Virus record (IMG/VR): IMGVR_UViG_3300021093_000004
From: a virus
Taxonomy: Duplodnaviria > Caudoviricetes
DNA: 64,000 nt
Strand: one strand, 5' to 3'
The notes beneath the pieces are model-generated. The model was not told where the DNA came from. It searched no databases and worked only from the letters and a program-made list of their open reading frames with translations. The stretch's first letter is position 1. Every line of letters begins with the position of its first letter. Positions 6,550 to 39,288 of this stretch are shown piece by piece. Made by a program: the position numbers and the translations under genes.

Positions 6550-6599
6550 ATCACCCTCTTTAGGAGAGCATTTTGATACACATACCATAATTAGGCGAC

Positions 6600-9953: not shown

Positions 9954-10240
9954 TCTTCGATGACTCGTTTCAACTCTTCGGGAGACACCAATTGCTTGTC
10001 TCCACACAATTGGCATGTTGGCTTTAAATTGCCAGTTAATAGACCTAAACGATACGATTTCGCTTCTGCGTTGTTTAATACTTCGTCGAGAGACTTGTCA
10101 TTTATTGATCCGACTGGTGTGGGGTAGCAGCAGAGATGAACTTCACCACTGGCTCGAATAAAGGCTTTGGCCCATGGGTCGATACACAACCGGGTTTGGC
10201 CTTCTTGCGGTTTTTGTGAATAGATGCGTAGTGCAGTCAT
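9920..10240 (-). CDS. stand-alone SPASM/Twitch Fe-S domain protein
   Basis: CIDPW..AFIRASGEVHLCC...VGSINDKSLDEV...CQLC. Confidence 0.8.
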   Translation of the reverse strand: MTALRIYSQKPQEGQTRLCIDPWAKAFIRASGEVHLCCYPTPVGSINDKSLDEVLNNAEAKSYRLGLLTGNLKPTCQLCGDKQLVSPEELKRVIEEWYKNRKMEII

Positions 10241-11031
10241 GATACGTGTACCGGAATGGCCCAGTGAGCTTGCCCTGTTTGAATCTTATGATTCAAACTA
10301 TCTAGAATTCCTTGTTTAATATCGCAAACAATTCCATTTTGAAGACAGTGTGCTTCAATTTCAGTGAATATTTCTAACGCCCGTTTGCAATCATCGACGG
10401 GCATTTCAGCCACATGTTGAACTTCCAATGCTCCCTTCGGTGTCGGTCCGACCCCAAGGTTACAAAAGGTCATCGCATGGATACCAAGTCCAATTCCACA
10501 ATGGACCAAATCAAGTAGGCCCATCATGCTTTTGTCACAAACCACAATGCTCCATGAGATCTTTGGATCTCTGCCCATCACTCTCGCCCGCGTCGCCACA
10601 CGAATGAGATTGTATAGCACGTTTCGAATATCCCCTCCACGGCGTAGCTTACTGAATAGTTCGACATCGATGGTATCCAAACTGACAGTCACGCCTGTCA
10701 TGCGGCTAAGAAAGTCAATCTCGCGATCATCGTATGTCTTTGAGAGGTTTGTGCAGATTGAGACTCCGATACCAGCGTCGAATAGTTTATCAGCATAATC
10801 ACACCAACCGTCGATCATGGTGGTTTCACCGTGACCATGAATATGGACTACGAACGGTTCTAGTGCTTTGATCTCATCGATAAGTCGATGGGCCAATCCG
10901 GAATTCAGTGTAAGAAACTGCCATGACGGTTGGCTAACAAGACAGTATGAACATCTCATGTTACAATCGGTCGTTATCTCGATCATAACGTGATATAAGT
11001 TCTTAACTTCCAGCATTTCGTCTATGTTCAT
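10237..11031 (-). CDS. radical SAM protein
   Basis: CNMRCSYC (CxxxCxxC), GHGET, TNLS, VSLD. Confidence 0.9.
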   Translation of the reverse strand: MNIDEMLEVKNLYHVMIEITTDCNMRCSYCLVSQPSWQFLTLNSGLAHRLIDEIKALEPFVVHIHGHGETTMIDGWCDYADKLFDAGIGVSICTNLSKTYDDREIDFLSRMTGVTVSLDTIDVELFSKLRRGGDIRNVLYNLIRVATRARVMGRDPKISWSIVVCDKSMMGLLDLVHCGIGLGIHAMTFCNLGVGPTPKGALEVQHVAEMPVDDCKRALEIFTEIEAHCLQNGIVCDIKQGILDSLNHKIQTGQAHWAIPVHVS

Positions 11032-12095
11032 GATCGTGAAACCATTGTCCCAGGAAAGATCTGGTTTTTGGCAATATAGGCTCTAACTGTTTCGATTTGA
11101 TTCATTTGCTGCGGGGGCAGGACCGATGAATCAAAGGCACCGCAAGCCGTGATAACGAAATCAAGCTCGTCGATACCTAATTCCTTGGCTATTCGTTGAG
11201 CTTCATTCAGTTGTTCAATCGATTCTGTTGTGTTGAACAGAATATATTTCCAGCGGATCGTGCATTTCGCTCCGAGTTGTCGTTTGCGGCTTGCGGCGAC
11301 GCCCATAAACGCGACCGCTTTGTCCCAATTGCCTTTGCGTCGGTATGTTGCATACGCTTCTTTTGATGAGCCGTCGATAGAGCAATTTAATCTGTCGAAT
11401 AACAAGTATGCGTCATTGAATTCTTGATTGGCATTGGTATCCATTGATTGGGCTATAAAATGCTCATGTGCGTACCGGATCATATCCGGCAGCGATTTGT
11501 TTAGAGTTGGCTCACCTTTGCCACAATATTGGATTCGCTTAATTTCGACACTGTGCTTCTTCGCACAATCGAGCATATGTCTAAACCATTCGACAGGAAA
11601 CAAATATGGCGGTTTTTCAGTCGTGAGGGAAGATTTATGGATTCCGTGGACACAACCGGGGCATCGAAGGCTGCATGGAAACGATGGCTCTAACTGGATT
11701 TCGCTGATTTTGTCTATGCTGCCCAAAGCCCAATCGCGTGACACGCTGGTCTTCTTCAGTGATTTGTAGGCCGCACTCGATTGATGTTGAACATTATTGG
11801 CTGGTTCTGAATCTTTATATCGTTGAAAACGCCGTTCCCCGGCAGTAAGCAGGCAACAACAACCGGCACATTCAGGGATATAATATTGACTTGATTCTAG
11901 AACATCAAGCCGCATTTTCCTCATTTCTTCCGAATTAACAATGTCTGTGATAAAATCGGAATTGATGAAATCTTGTTGGACTACAGTATGTGTCTCACCT
12001 CCGTCACACCAGCATGGGACGCGACCATTTGCTTTGACATAAACTCGATTCCACGCCCAACAATGGAGTCGATGTTCAAGGATTGGTAATAGCAT
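11028..12095 (-). CDS. radical SAM protein with N-terminal SPASM-like domain
   Basis: N-terminal CWAWNRVYVKANGRVPCWC...CAGCCC; core CSLRCPGC, GKGEPTL, TNAN, SIDG; start ATG 12095 after GAGG. Confidence 0.85.
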   Translation of the reverse strand: MLLPILEHRLHCWAWNRVYVKANGRVPCWCDGGETHTVVQQDFINSDFITDIVNSEEMRKMRLDVLESSQYYIPECAGCCCLLTAGERRFQRYKDSEPANNVQHQSSAAYKSLKKTSVSRDWALGSIDKISEIQLEPSFPCSLRCPGCVHGIHKSSLTTEKPPYLFPVEWFRHMLDCAKKHSVEIKRIQYCGKGEPTLNKSLPDMIRYAHEHFIAQSMDTNANQEFNDAYLLFDRLNCSIDGSSKEAYATYRRKGNWDKAVAFMGVAASRKRQLGAKCTIRWKYILFNTTESIEQLNEAQRIAKELGIDELDFVITACGAFDSSVLPPQQMNQIETVRAYIAKNQIFPGTMVSRS

Positions 12096-13053
12096 AGCAC
12101 CTCTGTAGTTCGTCCCATATCGTACTACAGAAACGATCCCATGTGTAATGAGTTTCGATCTTTTTTCTAGCCACAATCGAGCGTGCTCGCAAGACATCAG
12201 ACGGCACGTGCAGCAAGTCAGTGATAATTTTGACAGTTTCATCTACGCTGTTGAGCGTCAATGAAGTGAACATGGAATCGTTATAATATCCAGATTGTGG
12301 AGTGCATGCTGGGATGAGACCCCAAGCAGTTGACTCTAACAACGTTGTGGGGTTAGCATCTGAGATACTGGTATTGATAAAAATATCGCATTCATTCACG
12401 ATCGTCTGTGCCAAGGTTCGGTCTAATACGACCCACCCAACTGTTTTTACATTAGGCAGCCTGGCTAGCGGTGATTCGCCATCGCCCCCATACCAGTGTA
12501 GTTGCACTGTCGGTAATCGCTTCATTACTTCATACATGAACCCAAGATTCTTCTGTGGCATATTGCTGCCGATATAGACCAATCTCCGATGTCCCACTTC
12601 GTTGAAATGCGTCTTAAGATATGGATAAATATTAGTATCAACAGCCATATCGACCCGCGTGATCTTCGGCTTCCAATGGACGAACGGTGTTCGTTCGATG
12701 GTGTCGTACCAGTATGGGCCGCAAATTGAAAACACTTTATCAGCCGCTTGCGTTAGATGATCAAACGGCATATTATCTTGGACGCGGACTGTATGCAGTG
12801 GATGAATTGTGCATCTTAAACGGCATTTCTTGCCCGAAGCGAAGAATCGCTGCACTGTGGTGCTTGGATCGTAATGGGGGTGTCCAATGAAAATGTCGTC
12901 TGGTTCCACATCGACATCGACATGGCTGTCCCATGTGTAGTATTGCACGTCTGCTCGTGCTTTCATGTAATAATATAGATGATGTGTAATTGAATATGGA
13001 GATTGAATTCGTGGATCATCTGGCGATCCGGCATAAACAAAATGAACTCTCAT
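12076..13053 (-). CDS. GT-B glycosyltransferase (GT4-like)
   Basis: YIGSNMPQKN, CDIFINTSISDANPTTLLESTAWGL (donor-binding region). Confidence 0.8.
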   Translation of the reverse strand: MRVHFVYAGSPDDPRIQSPYSITHHLYYYMKARADVQYYTWDSHVDVDVEPDDIFIGHPHYDPSTTVQRFFASGKKCRLRCTIHPLHTVRVQDNMPFDHLTQAADKVFSICGPYWYDTIERTPFVHWKPKITRVDMAVDTNIYPYLKTHFNEVGHRRLVYIGSNMPQKNLGFMYEVMKRLPTVQLHWYGGDGESPLARLPNVKTVGWVVLDRTLAQTIVNECDIFINTSISDANPTTLLESTAWGLIPACTPQSGYYNDSMFTSLTLNSVDETVKIITDLLHVPSDVLRARSIVARKKIETHYTWDRFCSTIWDELQRCYAITNP

Positions 13054-13135
13054 GGTTGCTTCTCGATTGGGCAGTGTTCTGGGTACGGCCTTATTGCGTG
13101 TCTGATGAATCGTTAGCCACGCATCACAGATACGA

Positions 13136-13171
13136 TATTGAATCCGAATTTTCTCAAAATCGGATTCAATA
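13136..13171. promoter_or_regulatory. near-perfect 36-bp palindrome (16-bp stem, one bulge) in an intergenic gap of the glycan cluster
   Basis: tattgaatccga-a-tttt-ctc-aaaa-tcggattcaata. Confidence 0.5.
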
Positions 13172-13197
13172 AGATTTTAGGATGGTACGATGATTTT

Positions 13198-14217
13198 TCA
13201 TGCCTGATGCTCCTTCAGCATGTTGATATATGCATCTATGTTGTCATCATGCCAAAAGATCTTTCCTGTTGCCCTGATTGGAGCACTTGTCACTGCTGGG
13301 CTGTTGGTGACTTCGAACCATCTGATGTCTTTTTTGCACCAATTAGTGTTACAAGCATTGGATAGACCGCTCGAAACACTGAAGAATGCCTGACAATGAT
13401 TGAACAATTCGGCGCATTCTCTGAGTGTCAGATTACCGACAAAAAAGACATTATCAGGAGCTAGTCGCTTTAGTTCTTGCACGTCGTAATTGTCATTCTT
13501 ACGACTAATGAACAAGTTAGTAGCTCCGTCGAGCAGATGCTTAGCAACCCGCATTGTCCATTCTGGCGTCCAAAAGCTTTGCCCAGACTCTCCGTGCACT
13601 TCCATTAGGATATTTCGGCAATTGGCCATGTTTGGAATGCGACTTCTAAAATCTCTCACCTTCGCGATTTCTTCTTGGGTTAACTTCAATATTGATTCGA
13701 TTGGCCATTCATATGGGATGTTGGCGTGTTCTAGTGCCCGCATCCACGCACAGATTAGATTATCGCCTAATTCTGGGTGCTTCAGGCTGTTCCAATTTCC
13801 GTGGTTAAACATCGGATGTGGCGAAAATGTTTGATCATATCCTCTTCCGACTAGATGGTCTGGAATCACCAATGCGAGGTGCAGAGCCGTGTCTTTGGTG
13901 TCGGCTGGATATTGAATCACATTTGTAATATGTGGGTTGTTATGAAATGCCGAACCATATAATGTAGATGTGTGAACATCAATAATACAATCTGGATATG
14001 CCTGTTTGATAGGTCGAAGCATCAATGTACTATTGATATTGTCTCCCCACGACCCGGTTTGAATAATCGCGATCTTTGATCGTTTTTCCGATGCGGAATA
14101 TATCGGAACCACCTGTGAAACGGTTGACTTAGGAAGAATTACTTTTTTCTTGCCAATCGATTTCTGAATGATCGGTTGTCGTTTGTTTGATACCGTTGGA
14201 TTAGTCTGGTGTCGCAA
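13198..14217 (-). CDS. GT9-like (heptosyltransferase-type) glycosyltransferase
   Basis: GSWGDNINSTLMLRPIKQAYPDCIIDV..NNPHI..V; LTLRECAELFNHCQAFFSVSSG. Confidence 0.75.
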   Translation of the reverse strand: MRHQTNPTVSNKRQPIIQKSIGKKKVILPKSTVSQVVPIYSASEKRSKIAIIQTGSWGDNINSTLMLRPIKQAYPDCIIDVHTSTLYGSAFHNNPHITNVIQYPADTKDTALHLALVIPDHLVGRGYDQTFSPHPMFNHGNWNSLKHPELGDNLICAWMRALEHANIPYEWPIESILKLTQEEIAKVRDFRSRIPNMANCRNILMEVHGESGQSFWTPEWTMRVAKHLLDGATNLFISRKNDNYDVQELKRLAPDNVFFVGNLTLRECAELFNHCQAFFSVSSGLSNACNTNWCKKDIRWFEVTNSPAVTSAPIRATGKIFWHDDNIDAYINMLKEHQA

Positions 14218-14932
14218 GGTCGATATCTCTCAATAGTTGTCCGGTTGATGGATCGTGTCTACGTTCTAATGATTCGGCAGAAAGGTAATATAATGCCAAA
14301 TCATCAGAAATAAGCCCAAATTGTTCTCCGCCAGCATGAAATTTTTCCCACAATCTGGCATCGCCAATCACACGATAATTACCAAAGTACCCATATTTTT
14401 TATGCAATTCTCGCCTCCATATCGGGCACGGTCCGGCAGTCGATAGTGGATATGGATGGGCCGGGATTTTGTCGTGCGGTGTCCAATCAGGCCAAAGCTG
14501 ATTCGGAGTGTGTGTCATGAGGATTCCGGTTGACACAATTCCTACATCGGGATGCTGGTCGAGATAGTCACAGCATCTTTCAAGATATGTCGGATGCCAT
14601 TGATCGTCGGCGTTATAATTGGTAATATATCGCGATTTTGTCCGCTTGATACCAACGTTCCAACTTGGATATAGTAAGATAGGCTCGTCGAATACTATGT
14701 TGATGACGTTTGAGCGTTCAGCCGCAAATGCGTCGCACAACGCAGATTCATTCTCATGATTTTGGCAATTCAGGAAAACCACTAATGAATCGTCGATTAT
14801 CGTTTGCAGTTTAAGCGATTCAATCTTGGATTTTATGAATTTCCCAGATTTGTAGAGAGCGACTAATACTACGACTCTAGGCTCTTTTTCAATTCTTGAT
14901 GATTGTGAACCCATACGATATCCTTGTGCCAT
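14201..14932 (-). CDS. GT2 family glycosyltransferase
   Basis: VLVALYK, WNVGIK..KSRYITNYNADD, PCPIWRRELHKKYGYF. Confidence 0.8.
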   Translation of the reverse strand: MAQGYRMGSQSSRIEKEPRVVVLVALYKSGKFIKSKIESLKLQTIIDDSLVVFLNCQNHENESALCDAFAAERSNVINIVFDEPILLYPSWNVGIKRTKSRYITNYNADDQWHPTYLERCCDYLDQHPDVGIVSTGILMTHTPNQLWPDWTPHDKIPAHPYPLSTAGPCPIWRRELHKKYGYFGNYRVIGDARLWEKFHAGGEQFGLISDDLALYYLSAESLERRHDPSTGQLLRDIDLATPD

Positions 14933-15678
14933 TGCACTTGAGCCAGTCTATATTCATATTTGTAAAGATCATCCACCCACAAACATATGACCTTCTTTGC
15001 CTGATATTCGTTTGGCAGTGCGAGGTTTGCACAGAAGAATCCAGACCCGACTGAGAAGAATATACTACAGTGGCGTAATAGCATTATTATTTGTCTGCGG
15101 GTATACCTTAAAAGATCATCTACATTCGGATGATTTGGGGCACCCTGGTTGCTAAGCCACAGAATTTTATGGGTGCAGGCGAATCTATCAACAATCATTT
15201 GAATTGCTTCTTGGTCAGCCCAACTCTGAGCAGATTTTGCTACGCATTCTACGGCGATGGTTGGATGTCCATTCAATAATTGCCCATAATCATGCCCAAA
15301 TCGCAATTCGTCTTGTGTTGGCAAGAACATTGGCCTCTGTTCGAAATCCGGTAGCCCTAGTTCTCGTCCAACACATAGTGCTGTGTCGATCAGTGAATGG
15401 TTTTGATCATGTTGCTGGTAGGCAGGAAATTTTGCATTTTGAGTGATCTGATAAATATGCCGATATTTCAGTCTTTCCAGTGCTTCCAGCCCGTGATACA
15501 TGCTCGGAATGTGGATAATTTCGCCGATCCACGGAACGTTAATAAATGCGTCTGCACAGTGCGGTGTTACAGCAACAGTGACTTCGCGTCCATGCTTTTC
15601 ACTTATTGACTTGATGAGTGGAACATTGAATAGGCAATCACCGAAGCCATGAGATGATTCAACACCAACAACATTCAT
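14869..15678 (-). CDS. GT9-like glycosyltransferase
   Basis: HGFGDCLFNVPLIKSI...NVPWIGEII; LLRHCSIFFSVGSG. Confidence 0.75.
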   Translation of the reverse strand: MNVVGVESSHGFGDCLFNVPLIKSISEKHGREVTVAVTPHCADAFINVPWIGEIIHIPSMYHGLEALERLKYRHIYQITQNAKFPAYQQHDQNHSLIDTALCVGRELGLPDFEQRPMFLPTQDELRFGHDYGQLLNGHPTIAVECVAKSAQSWADQEAIQMIVDRFACTHKILWLSNQGAPNHPNVDDLLRYTRRQIIMLLRHCSIFFSVGSGFFCANLALPNEYQAKKVICLWVDDLYKYEYRLAQVQWHKDIVWVHNHQELKKSLES

Positions 15679-15697
15679 ACGTGCTCCTCTTTTGATT

Positions 15698-16378
15698 TTA
15701 GTTAGCATGTGCTTCTCTGCGTAGGAATGTTTTGAGATGTGTTATACTGTGAAATCCGAACGATGTTTCTAATTTATCATGATCGTCCCACGCGGTTTCA
15801 ATTGCAAATCGCTTTCCGATATCAAGCTTGGGAAATTTAAACCCTTTGCTAAGAAAATATTGGCGATATATTAAAGAAATGGTTACATCTTCGTTTATTT
15901 TCTTGTCGATTTGCAGATCGGAACATTCCTGTAATAATTTAAAACTTCTCAGAGAGAATCCGCCATTACCAACGATCCCATTCTCTCTACATGGATAACC
16001 TCTTAACCATCCATCAAGAGGCCAAGGAGCACCAATATAATCATAGTCCAAAAATTCATTACTCCATAGGTGTGGGTTGGCTATACATCCGTCCCACTGA
16101 AACAGCAAGCAAAATTTCGAGTCGATATGCTTATGTAACTCTTTGATACAGAAATTATTATAATCTTGGAGTGAGCCAATTGGATCTATACTAATGAATT
16201 GTACTAGGTCGTGCCGAATATGATTTTGCGGCGGGGTCAATATTACGATTTTATGAAACTTGAAATAGCGTGCCGCAAATTCAGCGTGACGGATGAGCAT
16301 TTTAATTGCAAATTCACTGATCCGACCATCAATACCACAATAAGTTATGTCTGGCAAATAGGTTGTGTGGTTTAGCAT
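15698..16378 (-). CDS. DUF5672-like putative glycosyltransferase
   Basis: LLFQWDG...WSNEFLDYDYIGAPW...VGNGGFSLRS.KLL...NED...FGFH. Confidence 0.75.
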   Translation of the reverse strand: MLNHTTYLPDITYCGIDGRISEFAIKMLIRHAEFAARYFKFHKIVILTPPQNHIRHDLVQFISIDPIGSLQDYNNFCIKELHKHIDSKFCLLFQWDGCIANPHLWSNEFLDYDYIGAPWPLDGWLRGYPCRENGIVGNGGFSLRSFKLLQECSDLQIDKKINEDVTISLIYRQYFLSKGFKFPKLDIGKRFAIETAWDDHDKLETSFGFHSITHLKTFLRREAHAN

Positions 16379-17079
16379 CCACGATATTCTTGTACTTTAG
16401 TATGGAATTTTTGCCATTCCTCTGATGTAATTTCGCGTTGCCATAGATTCTGACCATTTCTCCAAAGATAGCACGCAAGGAGTTCGTTTATCCAGAGAAA
16501 TCTCGAATTGGCCTGGTAATAAGACCGCATCCACCATTCCGCATCGCCTGCGGCTTTAAACGATTCATCAAATAATCCGATTTTATCGTGAACCGACCGC
16601 CTCCAGAGTGGGAAATGCCCGACCCCGGCTCTGTCGATGTCTCCAGTGAAATTCCCAGGTAGACCACCAACAGCATCAACATTGGTTAATTGGTGCCAAT
16701 TTTGGTTTGGGACATCTGTCGTGTACCAGCTTGGATAGGCGAAATCATAGGCCGAATCACTATCCAATTCTGCCATTAGTCTCGCATAACAAGTCGGTGC
16801 TACTAGGTCATCGGTGTTAGCGTTTGTAATATATTGGCCTGATGATTGTTGAATTATATAATTCCACGCTGCATAGACACTAATTCTTTCCTCTAATTTC
16901 ACATACTTCACTGGATATTGTTGCGGAATATCGTGATCACGCGGGTCTGGGCTGTTTGCATTGACACACCAAATCTCGCTTTGAGGCAAGACGGTGATTT
17001 GCATAAGATTGTCGAGGCGATTCTTTATCCATTCGCCGGAATTATACAGCGACACCATTATGACGAGTTTGGGGTGCAT
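16372..17079 (-). CDS. GT2 family glycosyltransferase
   Basis: IMVSLYNS, AWNYII..SSGQYITNANTDD, PLWRRSVHDKIGLFDESFKAAGDAEW. Confidence 0.85.
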   Translation of the reverse strand: MHPKLVIMVSLYNSGEWIKNRLDNLMQITVLPQSEIWCVNANSPDPRDHDIPQQYPVKYVKLEERISVYAAWNYIIQQSSGQYITNANTDDLVAPTCYARLMAELDSDSAYDFAYPSWYTTDVPNQNWHQLTNVDAVGGLPGNFTGDIDRAGVGHFPLWRRSVHDKIGLFDESFKAAGDAEWWMRSYYQANSRFLWINELLACYLWRNGQNLWQREITSEEWQKFHTKVQEYRGC

Positions 17080-17080
17080 G

Positions 17081-17464
17081 CTATCGGTATTCCGTGTACG
17101 ACTTCTCCTCGACGATATTCGAGTGAAGTAGGTCGTTGATTTGTCTTTTGATCTTCGATCTCTCATCGTTGTTCAGATATACTCCACGTGCGAATTGCAC
17201 GAACTCATCTGAAAAATCTTTTCGCCTTTCACAATCCCTGATGCCATCTTCAATATCCCAGATGGTCTCGTTTATAATCTTCAATTGTGCCCGCAATTGA
17301 ATCAACTCATCTGACATCAGCAATGTAGCATATTTGGCCGATAGCAATTCTAATTCCGTCTGAACATTTTTCAGTTTCGCGGGGTCAGATATACGCTCTG
17401 CCTTTATTGCCAGGATAGTCAATTTATCGACGAGTTCGCCATACGAGACTGGAGCGTCAATCAT
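17081..17464 (-). CDS. DUF6165-like conserved protein
   Basis: [17 protein letters not shown]...WDIED.IR..E...F...AR.VY..ND.R..IK..IN...S.IVEEKSY. Confidence 0.75.
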
Positions 17465-18384
17465 TTGTCATACCAATCTATAGTTTTTAGGAGGCCGCTT
17501 TCAAGTGATGTTTTGGCTTTAAAACCAAATAATGCTTCTGCACGAGTGGTGTCTAGGCACCGGCGTGGCTGTCCGTCTGGGTAATTCGAATCCCAAATAA
17601 TCTTGCCATTGAATTTTGTGCGTTTGGCGATCATTTCGACGAGGGCTTTAATTGAGATTTCTGATTGTGTTCCCAGATTCACTGGTTCGTTGCCGTCATA
17701 CAATTCAGTGGCAGCAACAATGCCTTCAGCGGCATCTTCGACATAGAGAAATTCACGAGTCGCAGAACCGGTCCCCCAACAAGTGATCGATGGTGCCTTG
17801 GCGTCACGGGCTTCGATGCATTTTTTGATTAATGCTGGGATCACATGAGACGAATTGGGGTTGAAATTGTCTTTCGGTCCGTACAGGTTGACGGGTAGCA
17901 GATAAATGCTGTTGAATCCGAATTCTTGTCGGTATGCTTGCGATTGGACTAACATCATTTTCTTAGCTAACCCGTATGGTGCGTTTGTTTCCTCTGGATA
18001 TCCGTTCCAAAGATCCTCTTCCTTGAAGGGAACCGGTGTGTGCTTGGGATATGCGCAAATAGTACCGATTGCGACGAATTTCTCAATTGCTCGCCGTTTA
18101 GCGTGCTCCATCAGTAGAGCACCCATCATCAGATTCTTATAATAGAATGTGCCTGGCTTTTCTCGATTGATTCCGATGCCGCCCACAACGGCGGCTAGGT
18201 GGATCACGATTTCTGGTTTGAAGTCATCGTACATTCTTTCAACGTCGGCTTCTTGAGTCAGGTCGTAATTCGAAGACCTGATTACGATTGGGGATACGCC
18301 TTTTAGCTGCAACAAATCGCAAACATGTGATCCGAGGAATCCTGCTCCACCGGTAACTGCTATTCGTTTTCCGGCAAGATTCAT
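17461..18384 (-). CDS. fcl: GDP-L-fucose synthase (extended SDR)
   Basis: [35 protein letters not shown] (YxxxK), NLYGP.DNF...[27 protein letters not shown]. Confidence 0.93.
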
Positions 18385-30536: not shown

Positions 30537-30974
30537 TTAGGCTTGATTTAACCACTTCTTGAGCATGCGGAGTAGCCGTAACTGCTCACGCCGAGCGGCG
30601 ACATTGGTATCGAAGAGACAGGATTCCGGCATCCATTCATTATCAGAATTTGAATAGAAAAATTCGCCGGTGTCTTTACTTCGAATAAGATCACAAACCA
30701 CGAATGGTTCAATCACTAATCGAGATGTGATGAGGCTAGTGAGTAATGTGAAGTCTGCGTGATGAACGCGGGGAAGCAGAGCCGTTGAACTTGATTTCCA
30801 AACTAATCTATATGGGCCACGCTCATATAAAACTTTTGGATGATGGTCAGTCATCCATTTGTCATCCTCTTCGATTTCAGGAACTGCTTCCTTTGGACGT
30901 AGAACCACCCACCACGCGGTATCTCCTACCTTGTAGCGTGCTAATTCTAGTACACTCTGTATTCTGCCACGCAT
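30537..30974 (-). CDS. hypothetical protein
   Basis: 145-aa ORF, tightly packed. Confidence 0.6.
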   Translation of the reverse strand: MRGRIQSVLELARYKVGDTAWWVVLRPKEAVPEIEEDDKWMTDHHPKVLYERGPYRLVWKSSSTALLPRVHHADFTLLTSLITSRLVIEPFVVCDLIRSKDTGEFFYSNSDNEWMPESCLFDTNVAARREQLRLLRMLKKWLNQA

Positions 30975-30980
30975 GTGATC

Positions 30981-31205
30981 TCATCCACAGATCACCCTAT
31001 TCAGTGCCTGGCTGACTATCTGCTCCGCTATCGTTCGCTTAACGCCAGTCACAATAGGAGACCATGTTCCGTTTTGGTTAATCTCGATCTGGTGATCCCC
31101 CTCCATCACGCTCTGTCCGGACATCGGAGTTATCCGGACATTCGTTGCACCCACTTCCTTTATTTGTCTGGTTGCAGTGTTTACATCAACGGCCATAATT
31201 TTCAC
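30981..31205 (-). CDS. small hypothetical protein
   Basis: 74-aa ORF after a GAGG SD. Confidence 0.6.
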   Translation of the reverse strand: MKIMAVDVNTATRQIKEVGATNVRITPMSGQSVMEGDHQIEINQNGTWSPIVTGVKRTIAEQIVSQALNRVICG

Positions 31206-31229: not shown

Positions 31230-32012
31230 TTAGATAGCGTCAAGGGCTTCGAAAGCCGTCTTGAACGTTTCGGATCTAGTTAAAGCACTTCCGTGCTTTC
31301 TTCCAAGTGCTGGCTCAAGGAAATACCAACCACCGAAATTCGTGGTGTTGGCATCATTCAAAGTAGCCTGAATTTTGGTATCACCAAACCCTATCGGCTT
31401 ATGCCCATGACCAATCTTAAAATCGTGAATATCTATCGCTCCGACATATTGTTTCAATAATGTCCAATATCTGATGAATGGGTCTTGCGATTGTCTAATG
31501 ATTAACTGGGCTGGGTCATATAATAATTTCCATCGCTTGAATTTGTTCAACCATTGAACAACATCCACTGGCCTATAAATAGAACTAGCGTGGGAAATCT
31601 CAAGCAGGGGTGTGATATTAGCAGAAATCGATCGTTCTGTGATCATATGAAGCCAATCGCGAACATGCTTGTCCGCGTCTGGAGCTTCTAACCCGGTATA
31701 GATTCTAATATAGGATGCCCCAAAGTACGAAGCAACATCAAATACTCGGTCGATTGACTCTTTCGGAATCGATGACAACGTGTTTGCGGGAACCTGTCCA
31801 AGTTCCGACGCAACCATAATGACGGTAAGCTCGTGCGACTTGAATAATGCCTTCAACGTCTGACACGATTGATCTGTAGCCGCACAAACATTGCTGGTCC
31901 ATACGTGTCGAAGAGCGAGGTACGGAATCCCAAGCGATTTTAATGTAGCACAGCCGGTTTCTGGATCTTCACCGGCCTCATCAAGATATGCTGCTAATTT
32001 TAATGGCCGCAT
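31230..32012 (-). CDS. xylose isomerase-like/AP endonuclease 2 TIM-barrel protein
   Basis: DE...D.E, YLALR.VW..NV, A..FGA.YIRIY, LLEI, YDPA, IDIHD, G.GD..I, EP motifs. Confidence 0.75.
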   Translation of the reverse strand: MRPLKLAAYLDEAGEDPETGCATLKSLGIPYLALRHVWTSNVCAATDQSCQTLKALFKSHELTVIMVASELGQVPANTLSSIPKESIDRVFDVASYFGASYIRIYTGLEAPDADKHVRDWLHMITERSISANITPLLEISHASSIYRPVDVVQWLNKFKRWKLLYDPAQLIIRQSQDPFIRYWTLLKQYVGAIDIHDFKIGHGHKPIGFGDTKIQATLNDANTTNFGGWYFLEPALGRKHGSALTRSETFKTAFEALDAI

Positions 32013-32015
32013 TTA

Positions 32016-33161
32016 TTACTCGACAAAGCATACGTGGTTGGTTTGGGGTCCGGTTCCTACTATAGTTACCGGCAGACCAACCAAATCTTCAATGTCAAGT
32101 ATGAAATCTTTCACCTTACTCGGTAGCTTGTTATAATCATTAGTCCCATAGCATGACCAATCGATATAGTTGGCAAAATTGAGGGCAATCTTCGTCGCCC
32201 CGTTCGCAGCCACGGCGTCCAGAAGTTGTAATTTGGAGAAAGTGAACACCCGACGAAGCCGCTTGGTGACAGTGGTCAATTCGCCCTTCATAACATCTGG
32301 TGGTGCACCACCGGCGGCAGCTACTTCGGCCCACGTAATTTCACTGTGGTCATCGTAACAATCACCGGAATATCCAACCGTATTGCCGTCTTCAATGACG
32401 TTTCCCACGCGGATCGGATATGGTCTTATTACCAGATAAATATCGCCGATGAGAGAATGTCCGATTCCCATATCGGCGACGTTCTGAACTGCGGTTGTTC
32501 CACGGCTGGTGCATTGTGGATAATGCGAACCGTGGTTGATATCGAGTGAGAACCCCTGTGATCCTTCATGCAGAGCGGTTTGCCCGTTTTGCAACAGGAA
32601 TTTCAGAATCCGTGGAATTGACAGGTTCTCGGTGTTGCCGAGCTTAACGGTGAGTTCGTTCATCCGGCCAACAAATTGTTGAAGCTCTGGATAATCGCGT
32701 GACAGCTTCAATTCCTTACGACGCATTACCTTGTCAGCAAGGAACGCCCCGCATCCTTGCATGGTGCTGGCGATGTGCTTTGTGCCGGTTTCGAGACTGG
32801 CTTCTTGCTGTTTGTGTGAGTCGAGAATGACTCCAGCACGTGGATGAATGTGGGTGTTCTCTTGAACTCCGCAGATCTCGATTTCTTTCAGCATTTGGGC
32901 CATGTCGTATGCCGATGACGCTCCTACGACGATGGCCGGTGAATAGTCTGTGCACCATTTCTTGAGAATTGCCGCCGATGGTAGTGCTTTAGCGACAAAA
33001 GCTTCTCCATCAATGTTGACCGCCGTATGTCCGGCGTTGCTCATGTTAGTTGTCGAGATTATTTCGGGTCGGTGTCTGTCTGCTAATGCAGTTGTGATAA
33101 GCCCTTTGCCGCAACTTCCCCACTGTCCATCAGTAACAACATTAAATCGGCCACTCAACAT
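32016..33161 (-). CDS. purZ: PurZ-clade N6-succino-2-amino-2'-deoxyadenylate synthase (adenylosuccinate synthetase superfamily)
   Basis: QWGSCGKG (Ser at the PurA catalytic Asp13 position), NAGHT, EGSQGFSL, YPQCTSR, RPYPIRVGN, SGDCYDD, TTVTKRLRRVFTFS, LNFANY in place of TKLD, VGTGP. Confidence 0.85.
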   Translation of the reverse strand: MLSGRFNVVTDGQWGSCGKGLITTALADRHRPEIISTTNMSNAGHTAVNIDGEAFVAKALPSAAILKKWCTDYSPAIVVGASSAYDMAQMLKEIEICGVQENTHIHPRAGVILDSHKQQEASLETGTKHIASTMQGCGAFLADKVMRRKELKLSRDYPELQQFVGRMNELTVKLGNTENLSIPRILKFLLQNGQTALHEGSQGFSLDINHGSHYPQCTSRGTTAVQNVADMGIGHSLIGDIYLVIRPYPIRVGNVIEDGNTVGYSGDCYDDHSEITWAEVAAAGGAPPDVMKGELTTVTKRLRRVFTFSKLQLLDAVAANGATKIALNFANYIDWSCYGTNDYNKLPSKVKDFILDIEDLVGLPVTIVGTGPQTNHVCFVE

Positions 33162-33236
33162 AGTGTATCTCCAAGAGCGGTGGTGTTTGACTACGCGGCT
33201 TCAATACCGCGTGGAACTTGTAGAAAGACCGTTTAT

Positions 33237-33623
33237 TTATCCGGTCGGTCGCAGGCGAGATGAAGTTGCGACATCATATCCATCGCCGTCCCACCCAGAA
33301 AGCTGAGCGGCGAAGTTCACTTCGTCGATCGTATCATTGCGATGTGCTCGTAATAGAGCTATAGCATCTGGCAAGTTCATAATTCTTACCAAGATGTCTT
33401 CAATATCACCATTTTCTGATCTGATAATCGATTGTACTGCAACTAAATTTCGCTGCTGAAGAAATCTTTTGATACGTTGAGCAGTTTGAATAGCGTGCAG
33501 TTCTCGTGCTATCCGGTCCAGCGACGCGGCTGTAGATTTTCGCTGTGCTTCTAACCATTCATCGCTTCTGGTTAGAAGATCAGCGTCATCGCCGATTTCA
33601 CTAATTAATGTCATTAGGCTCAT
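33237..33623 (-). CDS. hypothetical protein
   Basis: 128-aa ORF upstream of purZ. Confidence 0.6.
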   Translation of the reverse strand: MSLMTLISEIGDDADLLTRSDEWLEAQRKSTAASLDRIARELHAIQTAQRIKRFLQQRNLVAVQSIIRSENGDIEDILVRIMNLPDAIALLRAHRNDTIDEVNFAAQLSGWDGDGYDVATSSRLRPTG

Positions 33624-33957
33624 TGATTTTAACCCAGTGTTGTGGAACCCAAATTTTCCGACCCATGACTTCGATTCGGTAGAATAGTGGCTTCACGTCA
33701 CAAATGAGTGCAAATTCGTTGTACCATATATGTTCCGAATTGGTTACTTGAACCACATCTCCTATTTTTAATACCGCAAGACCATGTGGGTTTGTAATAT
33801 TTTCGGCTAGAGCCGCTTCTCCAGAAAATATCCCAACAGTGCCCAGATACCCACATACGGGGCACGTGACACACAACCCAGTAGGACCAACAACCACTTC
33901 GTTTGAATCAATCTCGAATGAAATGGAACAGTTCGGGCATATGAGATCTTTATGCAT
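33601..33957 (-). CDS. Zn-ribbon plus KOW/SH3-like small protein
   Basis: CPNC...CPVCG; LKIGDVVQV. Confidence 0.65.
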   Translation of the reverse strand: MHKDLICPNCSISFEIDSNEVVVGPTGLCVTCPVCGYLGTVGIFSGEAALAENITNPHGLAVLKIGDVVQVTNSEHIWYNEFALICDVKPLFYRIEVMGRKIWVPQHWVKINEPNDIN

Positions 33958-34648
33958 CGAGTAATTCTCGAAGCTGATCCGGCTGAGACTGAAATTCTTT
34001 GATAATAGTCTTGGCTTGAGCGAGATTAACTCCAAATCTCGAAGCATTGGGGCATGCTGCCACTGACTTCAAACTGGCGATATTCCCACAAACCTTAACC
34101 GGCACCTTGATGATATCACGAACATATTGGATTTGCCGATTATGCTCGTCTGGGTTGGCTTTGCTTACTTGAAGTTTGAGTAGAGTATCAGTACGAACTA
34201 ACGCCGGTGTCCTAACGGTTAATAGACCACGGCACATTGCCATGATGTTATCATCGTTTCGGAGCGAAGTTCCAAGAACAAATCGGACTTCCGTCGCATC
34301 TGACAGATGTTGTTTCACGAACTCTGTCAGTGCTTTGGATTCGATTCTCGTCTCTAATTCGAGCTTACTGGGAGTCAGCAAGAATTCGAAACCATCCGTT
34401 TCGAGAGAATCGGTTGTTAGACCCCGCATTTTGTTGACACCAAAGATCTCACCCTTCGGCCAATCAATTGGTGTGATGATCTTGAATTTGCCCCCAGCCC
34501 GACTCCTAGCAATGAGCGCGTCTGATGATAAACCCGGATGGACGACAATGGCCGGGAATTTATATTTATGAGCAAGTTCTATAGATTCTTGAATCTCGTT
34601 CACTTGCATTACATCGATTTCTAATCGATTGAATACTGACCCACTCAT
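33950..34648 (-). CDS. DeoC-like class I aldolase fold with Schiff-base Lys replaced by Arg
   Basis: AIVVHP, TPIDWPKG, LVRTDT (vs FVKTST), VKVCGNI (vs VKASGGI), ASRFGVN (vs ATRIGTS). Confidence 0.7.
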   Translation of the reverse strand: MSGSVFNRLEIDVMQVNEIQESIELAHKYKFPAIVVHPGLSSDALIARSRAGGKFKIITPIDWPKGEIFGVNKMRGLTTDSLETDGFEFLLTPSKLELETRIESKALTEFVKQHLSDATEVRFVLGTSLRNDDNIMAMCRGLLTVRTPALVRTDTLLKLQVSKANPDEHNRQIQYVRDIIKVPVKVCGNIASLKSVAACPNASRFGVNLAQAKTIIKEFQSQPDQLRELLDA

Positions 34649-35022
34649 GCTTTTAATTTCTCCAATGCGAACGTGAAAGCTTCATCAACCGACGAAAACC
34701 GAAACACGTTCGGTACAAAATAGAAGGTTTTCAATTCGGTAGTTGGCTCAAGGATCAGCACGACAGGCTTATTTGATACTATTGCTGCTCCGAGTTCAAC
34801 ATGAGTGCCACTCCTGGCCGGAGGTATCATGAAAAACAAATCGGCAGACGTAACACCATTTATTTCTGCGATTCCATATTGTTCCAATTCTGATTCAGAG
34901 AAAACTTGACCATGTGTGGTCCAATCATAAGATATTGATACACCGTGCCCACGAAATCGATCCATGACCGATTTTGCTTGATCTGAATTAAACAGGCTGG
35001 TTCCAACATATACGGTAGGCAT
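34645..35022 (-). CDS. nucleoside 2-deoxyribosyltransferase / dNMP N-glycosidase family protein
   Basis: VYVG, YDWT, GVTSADLF, GTHVELGAA...KPV (catalytic Glu present). Confidence 0.8.
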   Translation of the reverse strand: MPTVYVGTSLFNSDQAKSVMDRFRGHGVSISYDWTTHGQVFSESELEQYGIAEINGVTSADLFFMIPPARSGTHVELGAAIVSNKPVVLILEPTTELKTFYFVPNVFRFSSVDEAFTFALEKLKA

Positions 35023-35059: not shown

Positions 35060-36025
35060 TTATAATCTCTCAGCATGTGCAACAATTGTCGGCACAGATA
35101 TTTTATGGTCCATTTTGTTGAAGCGTTCTACGAAGTTCCATGGGTTTTCTGATGAACAGAACGTGAATTTTTGTCTTTCGCCCTCGTTGAGAACATCTGC
35201 CGCATAATCGTAAAATTCGGCTTCTTTCTGGAAACGTTCCCTTCGAACGTCTGGATTAACGTCTGGGTTGGTGCCATAGAAATGTAATTGCCCATTTAAC
35301 CCAGCTGGATTCATGTCGCAACCGAATATGTAAATGTGAGTATAACTCATCCAATACCCGAGTTGCATTGCTGCAAATACTGACGAACGCCCGATATGAA
35401 GCCCTTTTGTTAGGTCGCGGCTGAAGCCTTTGCCACCGAGATTCTTGACCTGCAATGAATTCTCTTTTTGCCGCTTGATTCCGGTACTATTGAAGATCAG
35501 GCCATTGTAACCGGCCCATAAATCTTCATGACGTCGCATTTGAGATTGGTCAAAGAATGCCCAGTGAGTTGTAGGCCAAATACGAGCGTCGGGCTTATTA
35601 ATCGACAATGTATGAATATTGGGATATCCTTTGAATTTCTCTAGTGGCACTTCGTTGATTGAAGGACCATTCCCAATTATAATTAAAATCTTGTTATAAC
35701 CATAATTCCTCAGTTGTTTGATTTTTACCAGCGAATCTGGGGTTATATCTCGACTGGTATATTTTACATTTGGTACCTTCTTGATGGCATTTTTGCGAGT
35801 TACGTGCTGTTTAGATACAGCCGCCGCCACCGGGATTTGTGGTGCGGGCTGAGATTGTTGGATTTTAACATGGACTCGGCGGTTGTTCAATTCATTGAGA
35901 TTTGCCGCCTGTCCGCTGGACGGCTTTACAACGATCTTTACAGACGACGAAGGGGTCTTAACGACTGTGCGTCTTCGCACCAGTTGTGGGCGAACCTTCA
36001 TTGTCACAATGTGATTGTTCGACAT
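35060..36025 (-). CDS. DUF115/Maf/MptE-like domain protein with basic N-terminal extension
   Basis: IIIGNGPSI, INK, SSVFAAMQL..WM....IYIFGCDM...HFY. Confidence 0.7.
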   Translation of the reverse strand: MSNNHIVTMKVRPQLVRRRTVVKTPSSSVKIVVKPSSGQAANLNELNNRRVHVKIQQSQPAPQIPVAAAVSKQHVTRKNAIKKVPNVKYTSRDITPDSLVKIKQLRNYGYNKILIIIGNGPSINEVPLEKFKGYPNIHTLSINKPDARIWPTTHWAFFDQSQMRRHEDLWAGYNGLIFNSTGIKRQKENSLQVKNLGGKGFSRDLTKGLHIGRSSVFAAMQLGYWMSYTHIYIFGCDMNPAGLNGQLHFYGTNPDVNPDVRRERFQKEAEFYDYAADVLNEGERQKFTFCSSENPWNFVERFNKMDHKISVPTIVAHAERL

Positions 36026-36334: not shown

Positions 36335-37123
36335 TCAGTTTGATTTAATAACACGACGGCTGTCAGTGTGAAGGCGAAAACTGCGGTGAGAATCTGGGAG
36401 AGTCCCGGCCTTCATATCATCCATCAACTTGAACATGCCATTCTTTTGTGTTTTACGGCGGTTCATGATGCTGAACATGCAGCGGTGAATTGTAGTTGTA
36501 AGCAGATTGAACACTGGTGCCCTTCCGGGAGTATAGACCAGTTTCTTTGCTCGCAATTTATTGGTGACTTGAAGAAGAGCTTCGTTTGAAAAATCTAGCT
36601 GCTCTTCTTCGGACGGGAGATTGAATTTCATGGCAATGCCTTGGCAGATTAAATTAACGTCTTCCAGCATCGCATGCCATGATTGTTCTGTTGGAATTTC
36701 GCGGATGTACCCATCATCCTGTAGTTTCGGAATGATCTCGTCGTATTGTACGAATATGTCAGTCTCAAGATGATGAATCTCTGAGTCCGAAAGGAGGGAC
36801 AATTCTTCTGCTTGTGGAAGGACACGCAATGCGGTTTCTCCGTTGCGATGCATCATTCCCTCCGCAGGAATCATACCATTATTGCTTTCGAAGTGGAAAG
36901 GCAGCCCGGTTGCGATACAATGCAGCCGTACAGGAGACATTGCGTCAGGCAGTGTTTTCCCGTTCTTCAGGATAGGTTGGCCATCTGCTCCGATAGCAAC
37001 CCCGATCACTTTGGTCCACAGTAACCCAAGTGCACGGTACGGTTCCAAGTCGGGAACGGATGACGATAAAAGCCATTGGAACCAACTTTTCTCTAGCTTG
37101 TTCGAATCGCAATATTGACCCAT
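36335..37123 (-). CDS. phage sigma-factor-like protein (gp55/late-sigma type)
   Basis: N-terminal YCDSNKLE; C-terminal LICQGIAMKFN...DFSNEALLQV..KL...PVFNLLTTTIHRCMF.IMNRRK resembles region 2 of T4-like sigmas. Confidence 0.55.
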   Translation of the reverse strand: MGQYCDSNKLEKSWFQWLLSSSVPDLEPYRALGLLWTKVIGVAIGADGQPILKNGKTLPDAMSPVRLHCIATGLPFHFESNNGMIPAEGMMHRNGETALRVLPQAEELSLLSDSEIHHLETDIFVQYDEIIPKLQDDGYIREIPTEQSWHAMLEDVNLICQGIAMKFNLPSEEEQLDFSNEALLQVTNKLRAKKLVYTPGRAPVFNLLTTTIHRCMFSIMNRRKTQKNGMFKLMDDMKAGTLPDSHRSFRLHTDSRRVIKSN

Positions 37124-37239
37124 GGTTGTCTCCTTGCCACAAAATCGTGTGATCAAAGGAGAGAAATACGACAGATTTCTTCTAGATCGAATAATCCATT
37201 GGTGTGCAACGTTCACGGGATGAACAAAGGAGTAACCGA

Positions 37240-38553
37240 GTGCCAATCATCCGACAAATGCCGGGGCTTTATCTCCGGGGGTCTATCGCTAACATTACCA
37301 TGGTGGGACTGTCTCCAGAGGAGAAAGCTCACATCGAGCTAGTTTTCGATCACGTCATCCACCACGAAGAGATGGTGCGGCACAAACAGAAGGTTATGAA
37401 GGAATTTGGTGTCACAATTCGTGCCGACTATGCCGACGATCGAGCCGCCGCTGAGCAAGAATTCAATATCGCCGTCTGGCGTGGGCTTGTCAGCATCTTC
37501 TATCACCGCACTTACGAATTCGAATGTACGAATTGCGGCGCGACCGCCAGCCTGACCCAACGCGGCAAGCCCAAGCCCATCGACCGAATGGTAACTCCGT
37601 GCCCAGTTTGCCACATGGCTGAAATCGTTGACCCCGGATGCTCTGACCACAATCCGGGCGATCTTGTCAATTACACCGAACTCCAAGAGCGTTATAAGCT
37701 CGTCGGGTTCGGGACGCCGACGTTCAAGAGCTGCATTCGGCCCATCCCGAAAGAGAAGAAATACGATAACCCAGACGAGATCATCGGGTGTCCCAAGCAG
37801 TTGAAACGATTCTTCGGCGAGTTCGTCTGGAATTACTTCCGCCAGCAGATTAAAGAGAACAAGCGGAAAGAACACAACAAGACGCCGGTGGAAATCACTG
37901 GCCCAGCAGATCAAATGATCGTCGAACTCATCTTGAGTCTCTGCTCACGAATGAATGTCGATTACAACCGGCACCACAAAGTCGAGCCGGTGAATGGCCG
38001 ATACACGATCGATCTGCTTGGCCTGCTCACGCCACCGGAATTTTCGATCGAACTCGCCCTTGTTCGAGTGTTGGCCGAAAGCCATGGAGTCGTCGTGACT
38101 ACCACGGCTCAAGCGATCGAAATAGCAGTTCACCCTAATCCTCCGACAATCAAAGTGTCGATAGTTCGTGCTGCGCATGTTACCATCATTGATAACCAAC
38201 TGACCGTGACTGACGATGAAGAGAATTCGGGATTCTCAATCAGTCAAGTCAGTTACAAGACTGTAGGAGCAAGACGAATGGACCAAGATGATCACGTGCA
38301 GACCACAGATATCAGGGAAGCCGCGACTAGGACGCGGGCAGCACTTCCTGATGGAGATTGCCAATCTGTCTACGACATTTATTGTCAGATCGGACCAGTA
38401 TACGATAAATTCTCTGAAGTCTACGGCAACGGAACGCCGAGAATTAATCACATCGCTGATTTTCTCGGCATCACCGCACGAGCCGTGAAGCAGTGTCGCG
38501 ATGTTATCCAAGTTCAGTGTCTTGCGAATGATTTCGTTCCGGCATCAACTTAG
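37240..38553 (+). CDS. sigma70-like factor with Zn-ribbon insertion
   Basis: GTG after GGAG; AEQEFNIAVW and FGEFVWNYFRQ (region 2-like) separated by CTNC..CPVC; C-terminal LPDGDCQSVY...IADFLGITARAVKQ (region 4 HTH). Confidence 0.55.
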   Translation: MPIIRQMPGLYLRGSIANITMVGLSPEEKAHIELVFDHVIHHEEMVRHKQKVMKEFGVTIRADYADDRAAAEQEFNIAVWRGLVSIFYHRTYEFECTNCGATASLTQRGKPKPIDRMVTPCPVCHMAEIVDPGCSDHNPGDLVNYTELQERYKLVGFGTPTFKSCIRPIPKEKKYDNPDEIIGCPKQLKRFFGEFVWNYFRQQIKENKRKEHNKTPVEITGPADQMIVELILSLCSRMNVDYNRHHKVEPVNGRYTIDLLGLLTPPEFSIELALVRVLAESHGVVVTTTAQAIEIAVHPNPPTIKVSIVRAAHVTIIDNQLTVTDDEENSGFSISQVSYKTVGARRMDQDDHVQTTDIREAATRTRAALPDGDCQSVYDIYCQIGPVYDKFSEVYGNGTPRINHIADFLGITARAVKQCRDVIQVQCLANDFVPAST

Positions 38554-39288
38554 AGAGCCGATCTTGACACCAGTAGTTTTTGGGTGATCCCAGTTTATCT
38601 CGGATCGCCCAAAATCAAAAAATCCGGGGGATTTGCCTTTGAAGGCTACATTACCACCGTGTGGATCTTGAGACAGGACCCCCGTCCTTTGTTGTATATC
38701 ATATAATCCTTGAACAATACTGTATACGGCTTTCTGCGTAGACTCATCTCCTTGATATGTTTTTGGAAGATGCTTCGACGTTACTATCGAGATGATCTGA
38801 TCTGGGTCTTGGATAAGTCCGGGGTTGTGATCTAAATAATCATACACAGCGTTGGCTGCTACACGATATCGCTTTCCTACGCCTGTCGACAGTCTTTCCA
38901 TTGCTATTACATATAATTCCGATTTCCCAGATTTCATCAGTGGATTCGGAAATGATTTTACCAATTTCACATCATAAATCGACGCCGCATTTGGCGAATC
39001 ATGCCCTTTCATAACAGCAGCAGCCGATGCTTCTTTGCGATCTGTGGTGAATTTCAAGATATAACGATCGCCCACAGGATACGCTCTTCCAGCCCCACCG
39101 GCCATTGATGATCCAATCTTACCATCGATTCCAAGCGAGTTGATCCATGATTGGAAGCGGGGGTCGTCTAAGATTGAGTCGGCCCACTCTTCAGGCCACG
39201 AAGCCTCCATTATCGGACCGCAATCATAGAGCCGGAGTGCGGTCAAAAACATTTCAGGAATATAAGAATGAATGTTACGTAGTTTCAT
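38545..39288 (-). CDS. protein kinase-like (APH/choline kinase fold) phosphotransferase
   Basis: AGGAGRAY Gly loop, ILKFT, KE, QDPHGGNV, FFDFG. Confidence 0.75.
   Translation of the reverse strand: MKLRNIHSYIPEMFLTALRLYDCGPIMEASWPEEWADSILDDPRFQSWINSLGIDGKIGSSMAGGAGRAYPVGDRYILKFTTDRKEASAAAVMKGHDSPNAASIYDVKLVKSFPNPLMKSGKSELYVIAMERLSTGVGKRYRVAANAVYDYLDHNPGLIQDPDQIISIVTSKHLPKTYQGDESTQKAVYSIVQGLYDIQQRTGVLSQDPHGGNVAFKGKSPGFFDFGRSEINWDHPKTTGVKIGSLS

Follow-up and report, generated by a model that had tools for sequence, protein, structure and literature searches.

A gene for PurZ in the DNA of an uncultured virus raises the question of whether the genes packed around it form a pathway for 2-aminoadenine (Z) nucleotides, and whether a protein of the NDT family encoded among them takes over the work done by DatZ and MazZ in small Z phages. 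We examined this question for a stretch of 64,000 nucleotides (the window, whose positions are used throughout) from IMG/VR virus record IMGVR_UViG_3300021093_000004 (Duplodnaviria; Caudoviricetes), a 157-kb record with an estimated completeness of 43%. The original prediction for this DNA had proposed that an NDT-like N-glycosidase gene, a DeoC-like gene and purZ at 31230-35022 belong to one module that purges dA. The reading we favour, tentatively and at somewhat short of an even chance, is that of a Z-DNA nucleotide block in which a separately recruited NDT nucleotide glycosidase would remove or recycle dAMP, and in which two barrel proteins would handle deoxyribose 5-phosphate. The stretch at 31230-35022 would then be the centre of a conserved block for Z nucleotide metabolism, found in T4-related jumbo phages of an uncultured clade.

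PurZ and the block of genes around it

Six open reading frames (ORFs) were confirmed with outer limits at exactly 31230 and 35022, all of them on the minus strand:

34645-35022, minus strand: NDT-superfamily N-glycosidase/transferase (P0001), predicted, 125 aa
33950-34648, minus strand: DERA-fold TIM barrel without the Schiff-base Lys (P0002, the DeoC-like protein), 232 aa
33601-34047, minus strand: Zn-ribbon protein (P0003), 148 aa, with a likely start at 33957 (MHKDL...)
33237-33623, minus strand: conserved 128-aa protein (P0004)
32016-33161, minus strand: PurZ, predicted N6-succino-2-amino-2'-deoxyadenylate synthase (P0005), 381 aa
31230-32012, minus strand: TIM barrel of the sugar-phosphate isomerase/epimerase type (xylose-isomerase-like; P0006), 260 aa

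The tight packing on a single strand that had been described for these genes agrees with the coordinates, as the NDT and DeoC-like genes overlap by 4 bp (ATGA), the PurZ and TIM genes are spaced by 3 bp, and the widest gap within the region is 75 bp. The gene identities assigned originally, including the change from Lys to Arg in the DeoC-like protein, also proved correct when examined by family profiles, fold match and residue alignment.

The PurZ protein matches PF00709 with 129 bits and PHROG 1211 with 212 bits. Its P-loop reads GSCGKG, compared with GDEGKG in PurA of Escherichia coli, so that a Ser occupies the position of PurA Asp13; the same Ser is found in 15 of 15 jumbo-phage PurZ homologues, and the form GS[CTS]GKG is common to PurZ of this clade and PurZ of the phages VP5 and SH-Ab 15497. 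It has been reported that 99% of PurA sequences have retained Asp13 and that all 147 phage PurZ sequences have Ser there (PMC12884076). The best matches among cultured phages are PurZ proteins, at 34-37% identity, and a tree of 22 sequences, none of them an archaeal PurA, joins the jumbo-phage proteins to the PurZ of VP5, of SH-Ab 15497 and of a Bacillus phage and sets PurZ0 apart (support 96/91). Among NCBIfam models the one for PurZ scores best (220 bits, compared with 211 bits for archaeal-type PurA), each score lying under the model's own cut-off. In its sequence the protein has the hallmarks of a synthase that joins dGMP and aspartate.

Outside the window, at G000:C1:154776-155825 on the minus strand (L078:1777-2826, minus strand), the same genome carries a gene for a PurB-like adenylosuccinate lyase (349 aa; TIGR00928, 275 bits), which fits a working PurZ route; no such lyase was found in three near-complete relatives. 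PurZ would condense dGMP with aspartate, and the PurB-like lyase could then release dZMP.

A second PurZ lineage, with the P-loop TDGGAGSSGKG, 31-33% identity to the window PurZ and a separate long branch, is present in four contigs, and the loci that hold it in the same slot are L009/L071, L019, L020, L021 and L040. Neighboring genes remain 40-60% identical where it occupies the slot, so that one PurZ looks to have been replaced by another in place. Three inteins of the classical kind are encoded by relative L006 (IMGVR_UViG_3300045256_000294; L006:9666-13362 and L006:5513-7561); PurZ contains two of them, and the Maf/MptE-like protein introduced below contains the third. Those in PurZ are ~400 aa each (NAGH|C...SHN|T and YPQ|C...AHN|C, at sites NAGH|T and PQ|CTS), and the third (G|C...THN|C, with LAGLIDADG-type motifs) is located just before the Cys of a G-C-D-M motif (G|CDM). 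The window copies of both genes are free of inteins. The presence of inteins in both genes of one relative marks their products as conserved-site enzymes.

Comparison of related loci shows that the block exceeds the six genes recognized originally, adding three conserved genes, listed here together with a small ORF lying between two of the genes:

36335-37246, minus strand: gene 36335, the first conserved gene of the block
35060-36025, minus strand: Maf/MptE/sialyltransferase-like nucleotide-binding enzyme, putative, 321 aa, just upstream of the NDT gene
30981-31205, minus strand: putative 74-aa ORF with a GAGGTG ribosome-binding site, unannotated, in the 255-bp gap between the TIM and 145-aa genes
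30537-30974, minus strand: conserved 145-aa protein that closes the block

No RNA sequencing run is listed for the stretch, and scans for promoters and terminators returned scores only ~2 standard deviations over shuffled background, with no convincing sites, so that the co-transcription named in the original prediction stands as a conjecture. A 247-aa protein encoded further upstream, at 38545-39288 on the minus strand, starts with MKLRNIHS.

The PurZ gene is present in all 18 IMG/VR loci that hold the DeoC-like gene, on contigs of 30-408 kb. In 17 of these loci the genes follow the order gene 36335, Maf/MptE-like, NDT, DeoC-like, (Zn ribbon), 128-aa gene, PurZ, TIM and 145-aa gene, and in the eighteenth the NDT gene is found ~10 kb away on the same contig. 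The order persists to about 30-40% protein identity. Loci L054 and L055 have lost the TIM, Zn-ribbon and 128-aa genes and kept the other block genes, and an endonuclease-like insertion between the 128-aa gene and PurZ has left the block intact elsewhere. The inserted gene (L040:1964-3955, minus strand) lies on the strand opposite to the block, encodes a 663-aa protein rich in Cys-x-x-Cys with a faint match to the Mom family, and is probably a mobile endonuclease gene. Retention of gene order at low identity, replacement of one PurZ lineage by another, loss of individual genes and insertion of a mobile gene together argue for more than passive synteny.

When the NDT gene rather than the DeoC-like gene is used as the point of reference, 20 of 32 IMG/VR loci with an NDT relative belong to the clade, 19 of them with PurZ in the locus itself, and in the remaining 12 no gene of the block occurs within 10 kb. 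We also searched whole contigs of the 15 nearest outside relatives of the NDT protein (24-38% identity), comprising these 12 and L061, L065 and L069, which are listed among the clade; three of the 15 contigs are at least 94% complete. A PF00709 gene was found in none of them. Since these nearest relatives sit on contigs free of PurA and PurZ, the link between NDT and PurZ comes down to a single event in evolution, after which it was faithfully kept. The co-occurrence of the two genes that had been suggested as a check of the original prediction gives a weak answer: linkage is complete inside the jumbo-phage clade, and no PurA or PurZ gene accompanies the 15 nearest relatives outside it.

Such a distribution bears on the possibility that these genes are unrelated neighbors, their order inherited in a slowly rearranging T4-like region and the DeoC-like gene being a decayed metabolic gene. 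Every linked locus indeed comes from one clade, the flanking 145-aa, 159-aa and 1653-aa proteins, which have no obvious nucleotide role, are just as syntenic, and in the eighteenth locus the NDT gene is separated from the others by ~10 kb. We nevertheless regard this explanation as rather improbable, as the DeoC-like protein keeps 39 invariant columns and its Arg down to 20% identity, the genes overlap or abut, and the block has not dispersed after the PurZ lineage swap and insertions of mobile genes.

Searches of GenBank phage sequences with the 3.8-kb stretch as DNA, with the NDT protein and with the DeoC-like protein all returned no match, and no cultured phage of the clade is included in that collection.

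The NDT-like protein and its possible role in exclusion of dA

The family profile of the NDT-like protein matches the N-glycosidases MilB, BcmB and BlsM at E ~2e-5 through a GTHVE[IL]G loop that carries the nucleophile Glu; in the window protein the loop is PARSGTHVELG, and Glu76 within GTHVELG is aligned to that same motif. Tyr5, Glu53 and Glu76 are invariant in 21 NDT sequences with identity down to 30% and form the proposed catalytic triad. Glu53 precedes Glu76 by 23 residues, close to the spacing of Asn77 and Glu103 in DmtZ, the triads being matched by position only. In DNPH1 the spacing between the acidic residue and the nucleophile Glu is likewise close to that of Glu53 and Glu76. The original comparison of this protein with nucleotide (NMP) glycosidases is supported by the retained triad and by the profile match.

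Asp six residues before the Glu fits NDTs specific for nucleosides (Kaminski and Labesse 2013, as cited in PMC12884076; engineered phosphodeoxyribosyltransferases). At this position the 21 aligned sequences usually have Arg and never Asp, from which we infer that a nucleotide is favoured over a nucleoside as substrate. Because the triad is intact and the loop is of the phosphate type, the protein probably acts on deoxynucleoside monophosphates. Run against 1.84 billion proteins, the profile recovers 5276 representatives (E<=1e-3), and PF05014 is carried by 11 of 17 homologues of the NDT protein, with members of the wider family scoring 30-38 bits, above the cut-off. One member of the wider family (P0270, from Logan contig ERR3697022) is a fusion with a pyrophosphatase domain of the MazG type, and another (in G006, L061) is encoded directly downstream of a MazG gene, which suggests a route from NTP to NMP to base.

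The most likely substrate in the jumbo phages would be dAMP, converted to adenine and deoxyribose 5-phosphate, possibly with movement of the sugar phosphate to another purine. In this way the NDT protein could do the job of DatZ and MazZ, as DmtZ does in PurZ0 phages. We searched the G000 fragment and three relatives that are 98-100% complete for HD, YfbR-like (DatZ), MazG (MazZ) and DUF550 proteins and found no match, the DUF550 search being a weak one since control genomes gave none either. As these near-complete relatives have neither DatZ, MazZ nor DUF550, other means of excluding dA are needed. Each complete relative carries two genes of the dUTPase family, an extended type and a canonical dUTPase, and the window encodes the following one:

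5980-6588, minus strand: dUTPase-family protein with a 93-residue N-terminal extension (PF00692, 69.9 bits), adjoining ThyX

The neighboring ORF is located at 6600-7472 on the minus strand. The extended protein is a speculative candidate for a dNTP pyrophosphatase, with a specificity that could resemble that of DutZ; it could provide the NDT enzyme with dNMPs, and may supply dAMP from dATP.

Several observations weigh against this account of the block. On the side of PurZ, the window protein scores under the NCBIfam cut-off for PurZ, and its placement in the PurZ clade is good but not closed, as placement relative to archaeal enzymes lies outside the reach of the tree. The window NDT protein itself scores 22.1 bits on PF05014, below the cut-off of 28.8, and its profile matches the DmtZ orthologue Archimedes gp53 only across the catalytic motif, with 10 bits. 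Its closest solved relatives act on cytidine nucleotides, and one wider family member adjoins a gene of the thymidylate-synthase family. All co-occurrence with PurZ comes from one lineage with conserved gene order and could be explained by inheritance alone, and the PurA/PurZ-free contigs of the nearest outside relatives likewise count against the account. What is proposed for the two barrels is a guess, and the enzyme activities of the clade, their substrates and the presence of Z in its DNA are all predicted from genes alone.

Some of these observations are what would be expected if the NDT protein remodels another pool (dCMP, dTMP, a hydroxymethyl-pyrimidine nucleotide or a ribonucleotide) and dA is excluded by polymerase selectivity or by the dUTPase paralogue. 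The best solved relatives are hydrolases of CMP and hydroxymethyl-CMP, a wider family member is found beside a thymidylate-synthase-family gene, most of the wider family occurs without PurZ, and the window contains ThyX, two methyltransferases and many sugar-modifying genes. We consider this explanation unlikely, given that almost all clade members have the NDT and PurZ genes no more than ~2 kb apart, that a thymidylate-synthase-family (ThyA-type) gene was found in none of the 15 outside contigs, and that DmtZ provides a case of an NDT enzyme serving a Z pathway (PMC12884076).

The two barrels and the Maf/MptE-like enzyme

The DeoC-like protein has no match in Pfam, PHROG or NCBIfam, and a search of PDB sequences with its profile produced only a chance match to a ribosomal protein. 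Its AlphaFold2 model is nevertheless of high quality (pLDDT 89.4, pTM 0.87), and all of the top 50 Foldseek matches in the PDB are deoxyribose-phosphate aldolases (DERA) or an enzyme designed on one (E ~1e-11, TM 0.75-0.8). Comparison of profiles by hhalign was not significant with E. coli DeoC alone; a local alignment with nine DeoC sequences from bacteria runs colinearly through 196 columns with an E-value of 0.056 and was used, beside the fold match, for residue mapping only. In this alignment Arg152 falls on the Schiff-base Lys167 of E. coli DeoC in strand 6, Arg122 falls on Lys137, and Lys185 falls on Lys201. Arg152 and Lys185 are both invariant in 18 homologues, and a homologue of 200 aa that is only 20% identical still has the Arg (hhalign probability 97%).

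The family therefore resembles DERA in having the same barrel with colinear strand order and in retaining Lys201, the F-P-x-G loop and the R-F-G strand, and differs from it in that Lys167 and Lys137 are both replaced by Arg, in that identity is only 12-19%, and in that the family has been found only in this phage clade. As judged from the alignment, the protein cannot form a Schiff base and so cannot use the canonical mechanism of class I aldolases. Its 39 invariant columns point to selection on the protein and not to decay of its gene.

The second barrel, encoded by the TIM gene, matches PF01261 with 48 bits (cut-off 31.1). In the ESM Atlas 97 of 100 feature matches, as well as the best structural match (TM 0.90), are sugar-phosphate isomerases or epimerases, and for this reason we dropped a reading of the gene as endonuclease IV; a search of PDB sequences yielded chance matches only. 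Both barrels would most likely bind or convert the released deoxyribose 5-phosphate without aldol cleavage.

A further possibility is that the NDT protein and the two barrels make up a salvage or base-swap route, by which dAMP of the host would be turned into dGMP for PurZ or directly into dZMP and Z-DNA would be made without DatZ, MazZ or DpoZ; the DERA-like protein would then be a new non-covalent enzyme or carrier. We give this elaboration a small probability.

The Maf/MptE-like enzyme is part of the same block. It scores 18.8 bits on PF01973, under the cut-off of 34.6, and its alignment has 51 invariant columns in the core, with GNGPS and G-C-D-M motifs, preceded by a basic, low-complexity N-terminal tail of ~90 residues. 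The AlphaFold2 model (pLDDT 89.7) was matched by VIA-align to the Maf glycosyltransferase 5mu5 (Z 14.6), to archaeal HPPK (MptE) 8sd5 (Z 10.6) and to sialyltransferases (Z 8-9.5), and by Foldseek to CstII with probability 0.98. Such a protein may be either a transferase or a pyrophosphokinase.

The presence of this enzyme leads to another alternative, namely that the product of the block is a purine nucleotide with further modification, or a hypermodification of DNA, the freed base or sugar phosphate being re-joined or decorated by the Maf/MptE-like, DERA-like and isomerase-like proteins. A parallel exists in nucleoside-antibiotic pathways, in which a base released by MilB or BlsM goes to a glycosyltransferase. 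The Maf/MptE-like gene is the most conserved of the block after PurZ, its product has the basic tail and, in one relative, an intein at a conserved motif, and the two sugar-phosphate-type barrels are conserved although neither is needed for plain Z synthesis; described Z pathways contain none of these three proteins. Conversely, the sequences do not allow a product to be proposed, L054/L055 can dispense with the TIM gene, which was not detected there, the DERA-like protein lacks the catalytic Lys, and fold matches at Z 8-15 show fold and not function. We consider a further modification quite unlikely.

The remaining proteins of the block offer fewer clues. The Zn-ribbon protein has two CxxC pairs and a match to PF13717 under the threshold, and its gene is a variable member, seen in about two thirds of related loci and missing from several. 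The 128-aa protein has no family match in Pfam, PHROG or NCBIfam and, by its sequence, looks helical; its gene was detected in 15 of 18 loci at 27-63% identity and not in L054/L055. Gene 36335, whose protein has no match in the same three collections, is found upstream of the block in 17 of the 18 loci with the DeoC-like gene (34-55% identity) and in 20 of the 32 with an NDT-like gene. Homologues align with its protein only from residue 35-41 on, and its true start is therefore probably the ATG near 37123 (Met42). The 145-aa gene was detected in 14 of 18 loci and is present in L054/L055, and an ESM Atlas search with its product gave nothing informative. At 10237-18384 on the minus strand, ~13 kb downstream of the block, past its 3' end, lies a run of sugar-modifying genes for a radical SAM/SPASM pair, several glycosyltransferases, a DUF5672 protein and an NAD-dependent epimerase, which could serve surface or DNA glycosylation.

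Comparison with known systems

The original prediction held that this combination is not part of described Z pathways. This no longer stands for the pairing itself, as an NDT enzyme together with PurZ0 (PMC12884076) has been published and an association of an NDT with dZ phages is described in a 2025 preprint (bioRxiv 10.1101/2025.10.22.683976), whereas the DERA-like, isomerase-like and Maf/MptE-like proteins are indeed absent from described Z pathways. In PurZ0 phages, monophosphates are made from dATP and dGTP by DutZ; DmtZ, an NDT-family enzyme published in 2026, hydrolyses dAMP to adenine and can also hand the deoxyribose 5-phosphate over to Z (PMC12884076). The mechanism proposed for the window thus has a direct experimental precedent, so far published for small soil phages only, even as the claim to novelty is outdated, and by analogy it is plausible that the NDT protein purges dAMP in place of DatZ. 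None of these block genes is mentioned in a paper on aquatic jumbo phages (PMC12619734) or in the main text of the metaGPA preprint.

If the favoured reading is true, Z-DNA synthesis reaches giant T4-related lake phages, and exclusion of adenine by NDT-type enzymes arose at least two times, from different NDT lineages. Three conserved candidates would be new to Z pathways, namely a DERA-fold protein with Arg for Lys, an isomerase-like barrel and a Maf/MptE-like enzyme, and the candidate proteins are targets for enzymology and for the engineering of cells that make Z-DNA. Should the reading fail, the block remains, in this clade of uncultured phages, a nucleotide-metabolism unit that is well delimited and marked by inteins.

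The closest functional parallel lies in the DmtZ/DutZ systems of the phages Ghobes (of Gordonia) and Wayne (of Arthrobacter) (PMC12884076). As in those phages, an NDT enzyme is encoded near a PurZ-type gene, DatZ and MazZ are absent, a dUTPase-family partner is present, the triad follows the same logic of Tyr, Asn or acid, and Glu, and the proposed job is conversion of dAMP to adenine, possibly with base exchange. The systems differ in that the partner here is PurZ and not PurZ0, in that the hosts of the genes are jumbo T4-like phages compared with 40-kb actinophages, and in that the NDT protein is free of a Dut fusion and accompanied by the DERA-like barrel, the isomerase-like barrel and the Maf/MptE-like enzyme. 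A DmtZ query found no match among the 32 NDT loci, placing the window protein outside the DmtZ group, in a different lineage.

NDT-M2 is a PF05014 protein statistically tied, through metagenome association, to Z-DNA phages, for which depletion of dA has been proposed (bioRxiv 10.1101/2025.10.22.683976). It acts on nucleosides and co-occurs with DatZ and PolA, not beside the PurZ gene, whereas here DatZ is lacking, the NDT gene is ~1.5 kb distant from PurZ, and the loop of its product points to a nucleotide as substrate. MilB, BlsM and BcmB (PDB 4jem, 5vto and 4jen), as the closest solved sequences, share the P-x-x-x-G-T-H-V-E-[IL]-G loop and the small single domain, but belong to Streptomyces antibiotic pathways with the ribonucleotides CMP and hydroxymethyl-CMP as substrates, and the similarity reaches E-values of only ~1e-5. 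The classical Z clusters of S-2L and PhiVC8 consist of PurZ, DatZ, MazZ and DpoZ or PrimPol; in the complete relatives of the window there is no HD/YfbR DatZ, MazG MazZ or DUF550 protein, and a PurB-like lyase is encoded in the genome of the window. What the classical clusters and the present block have in common is a Ser-type PurZ within a block of nucleotide metabolism.

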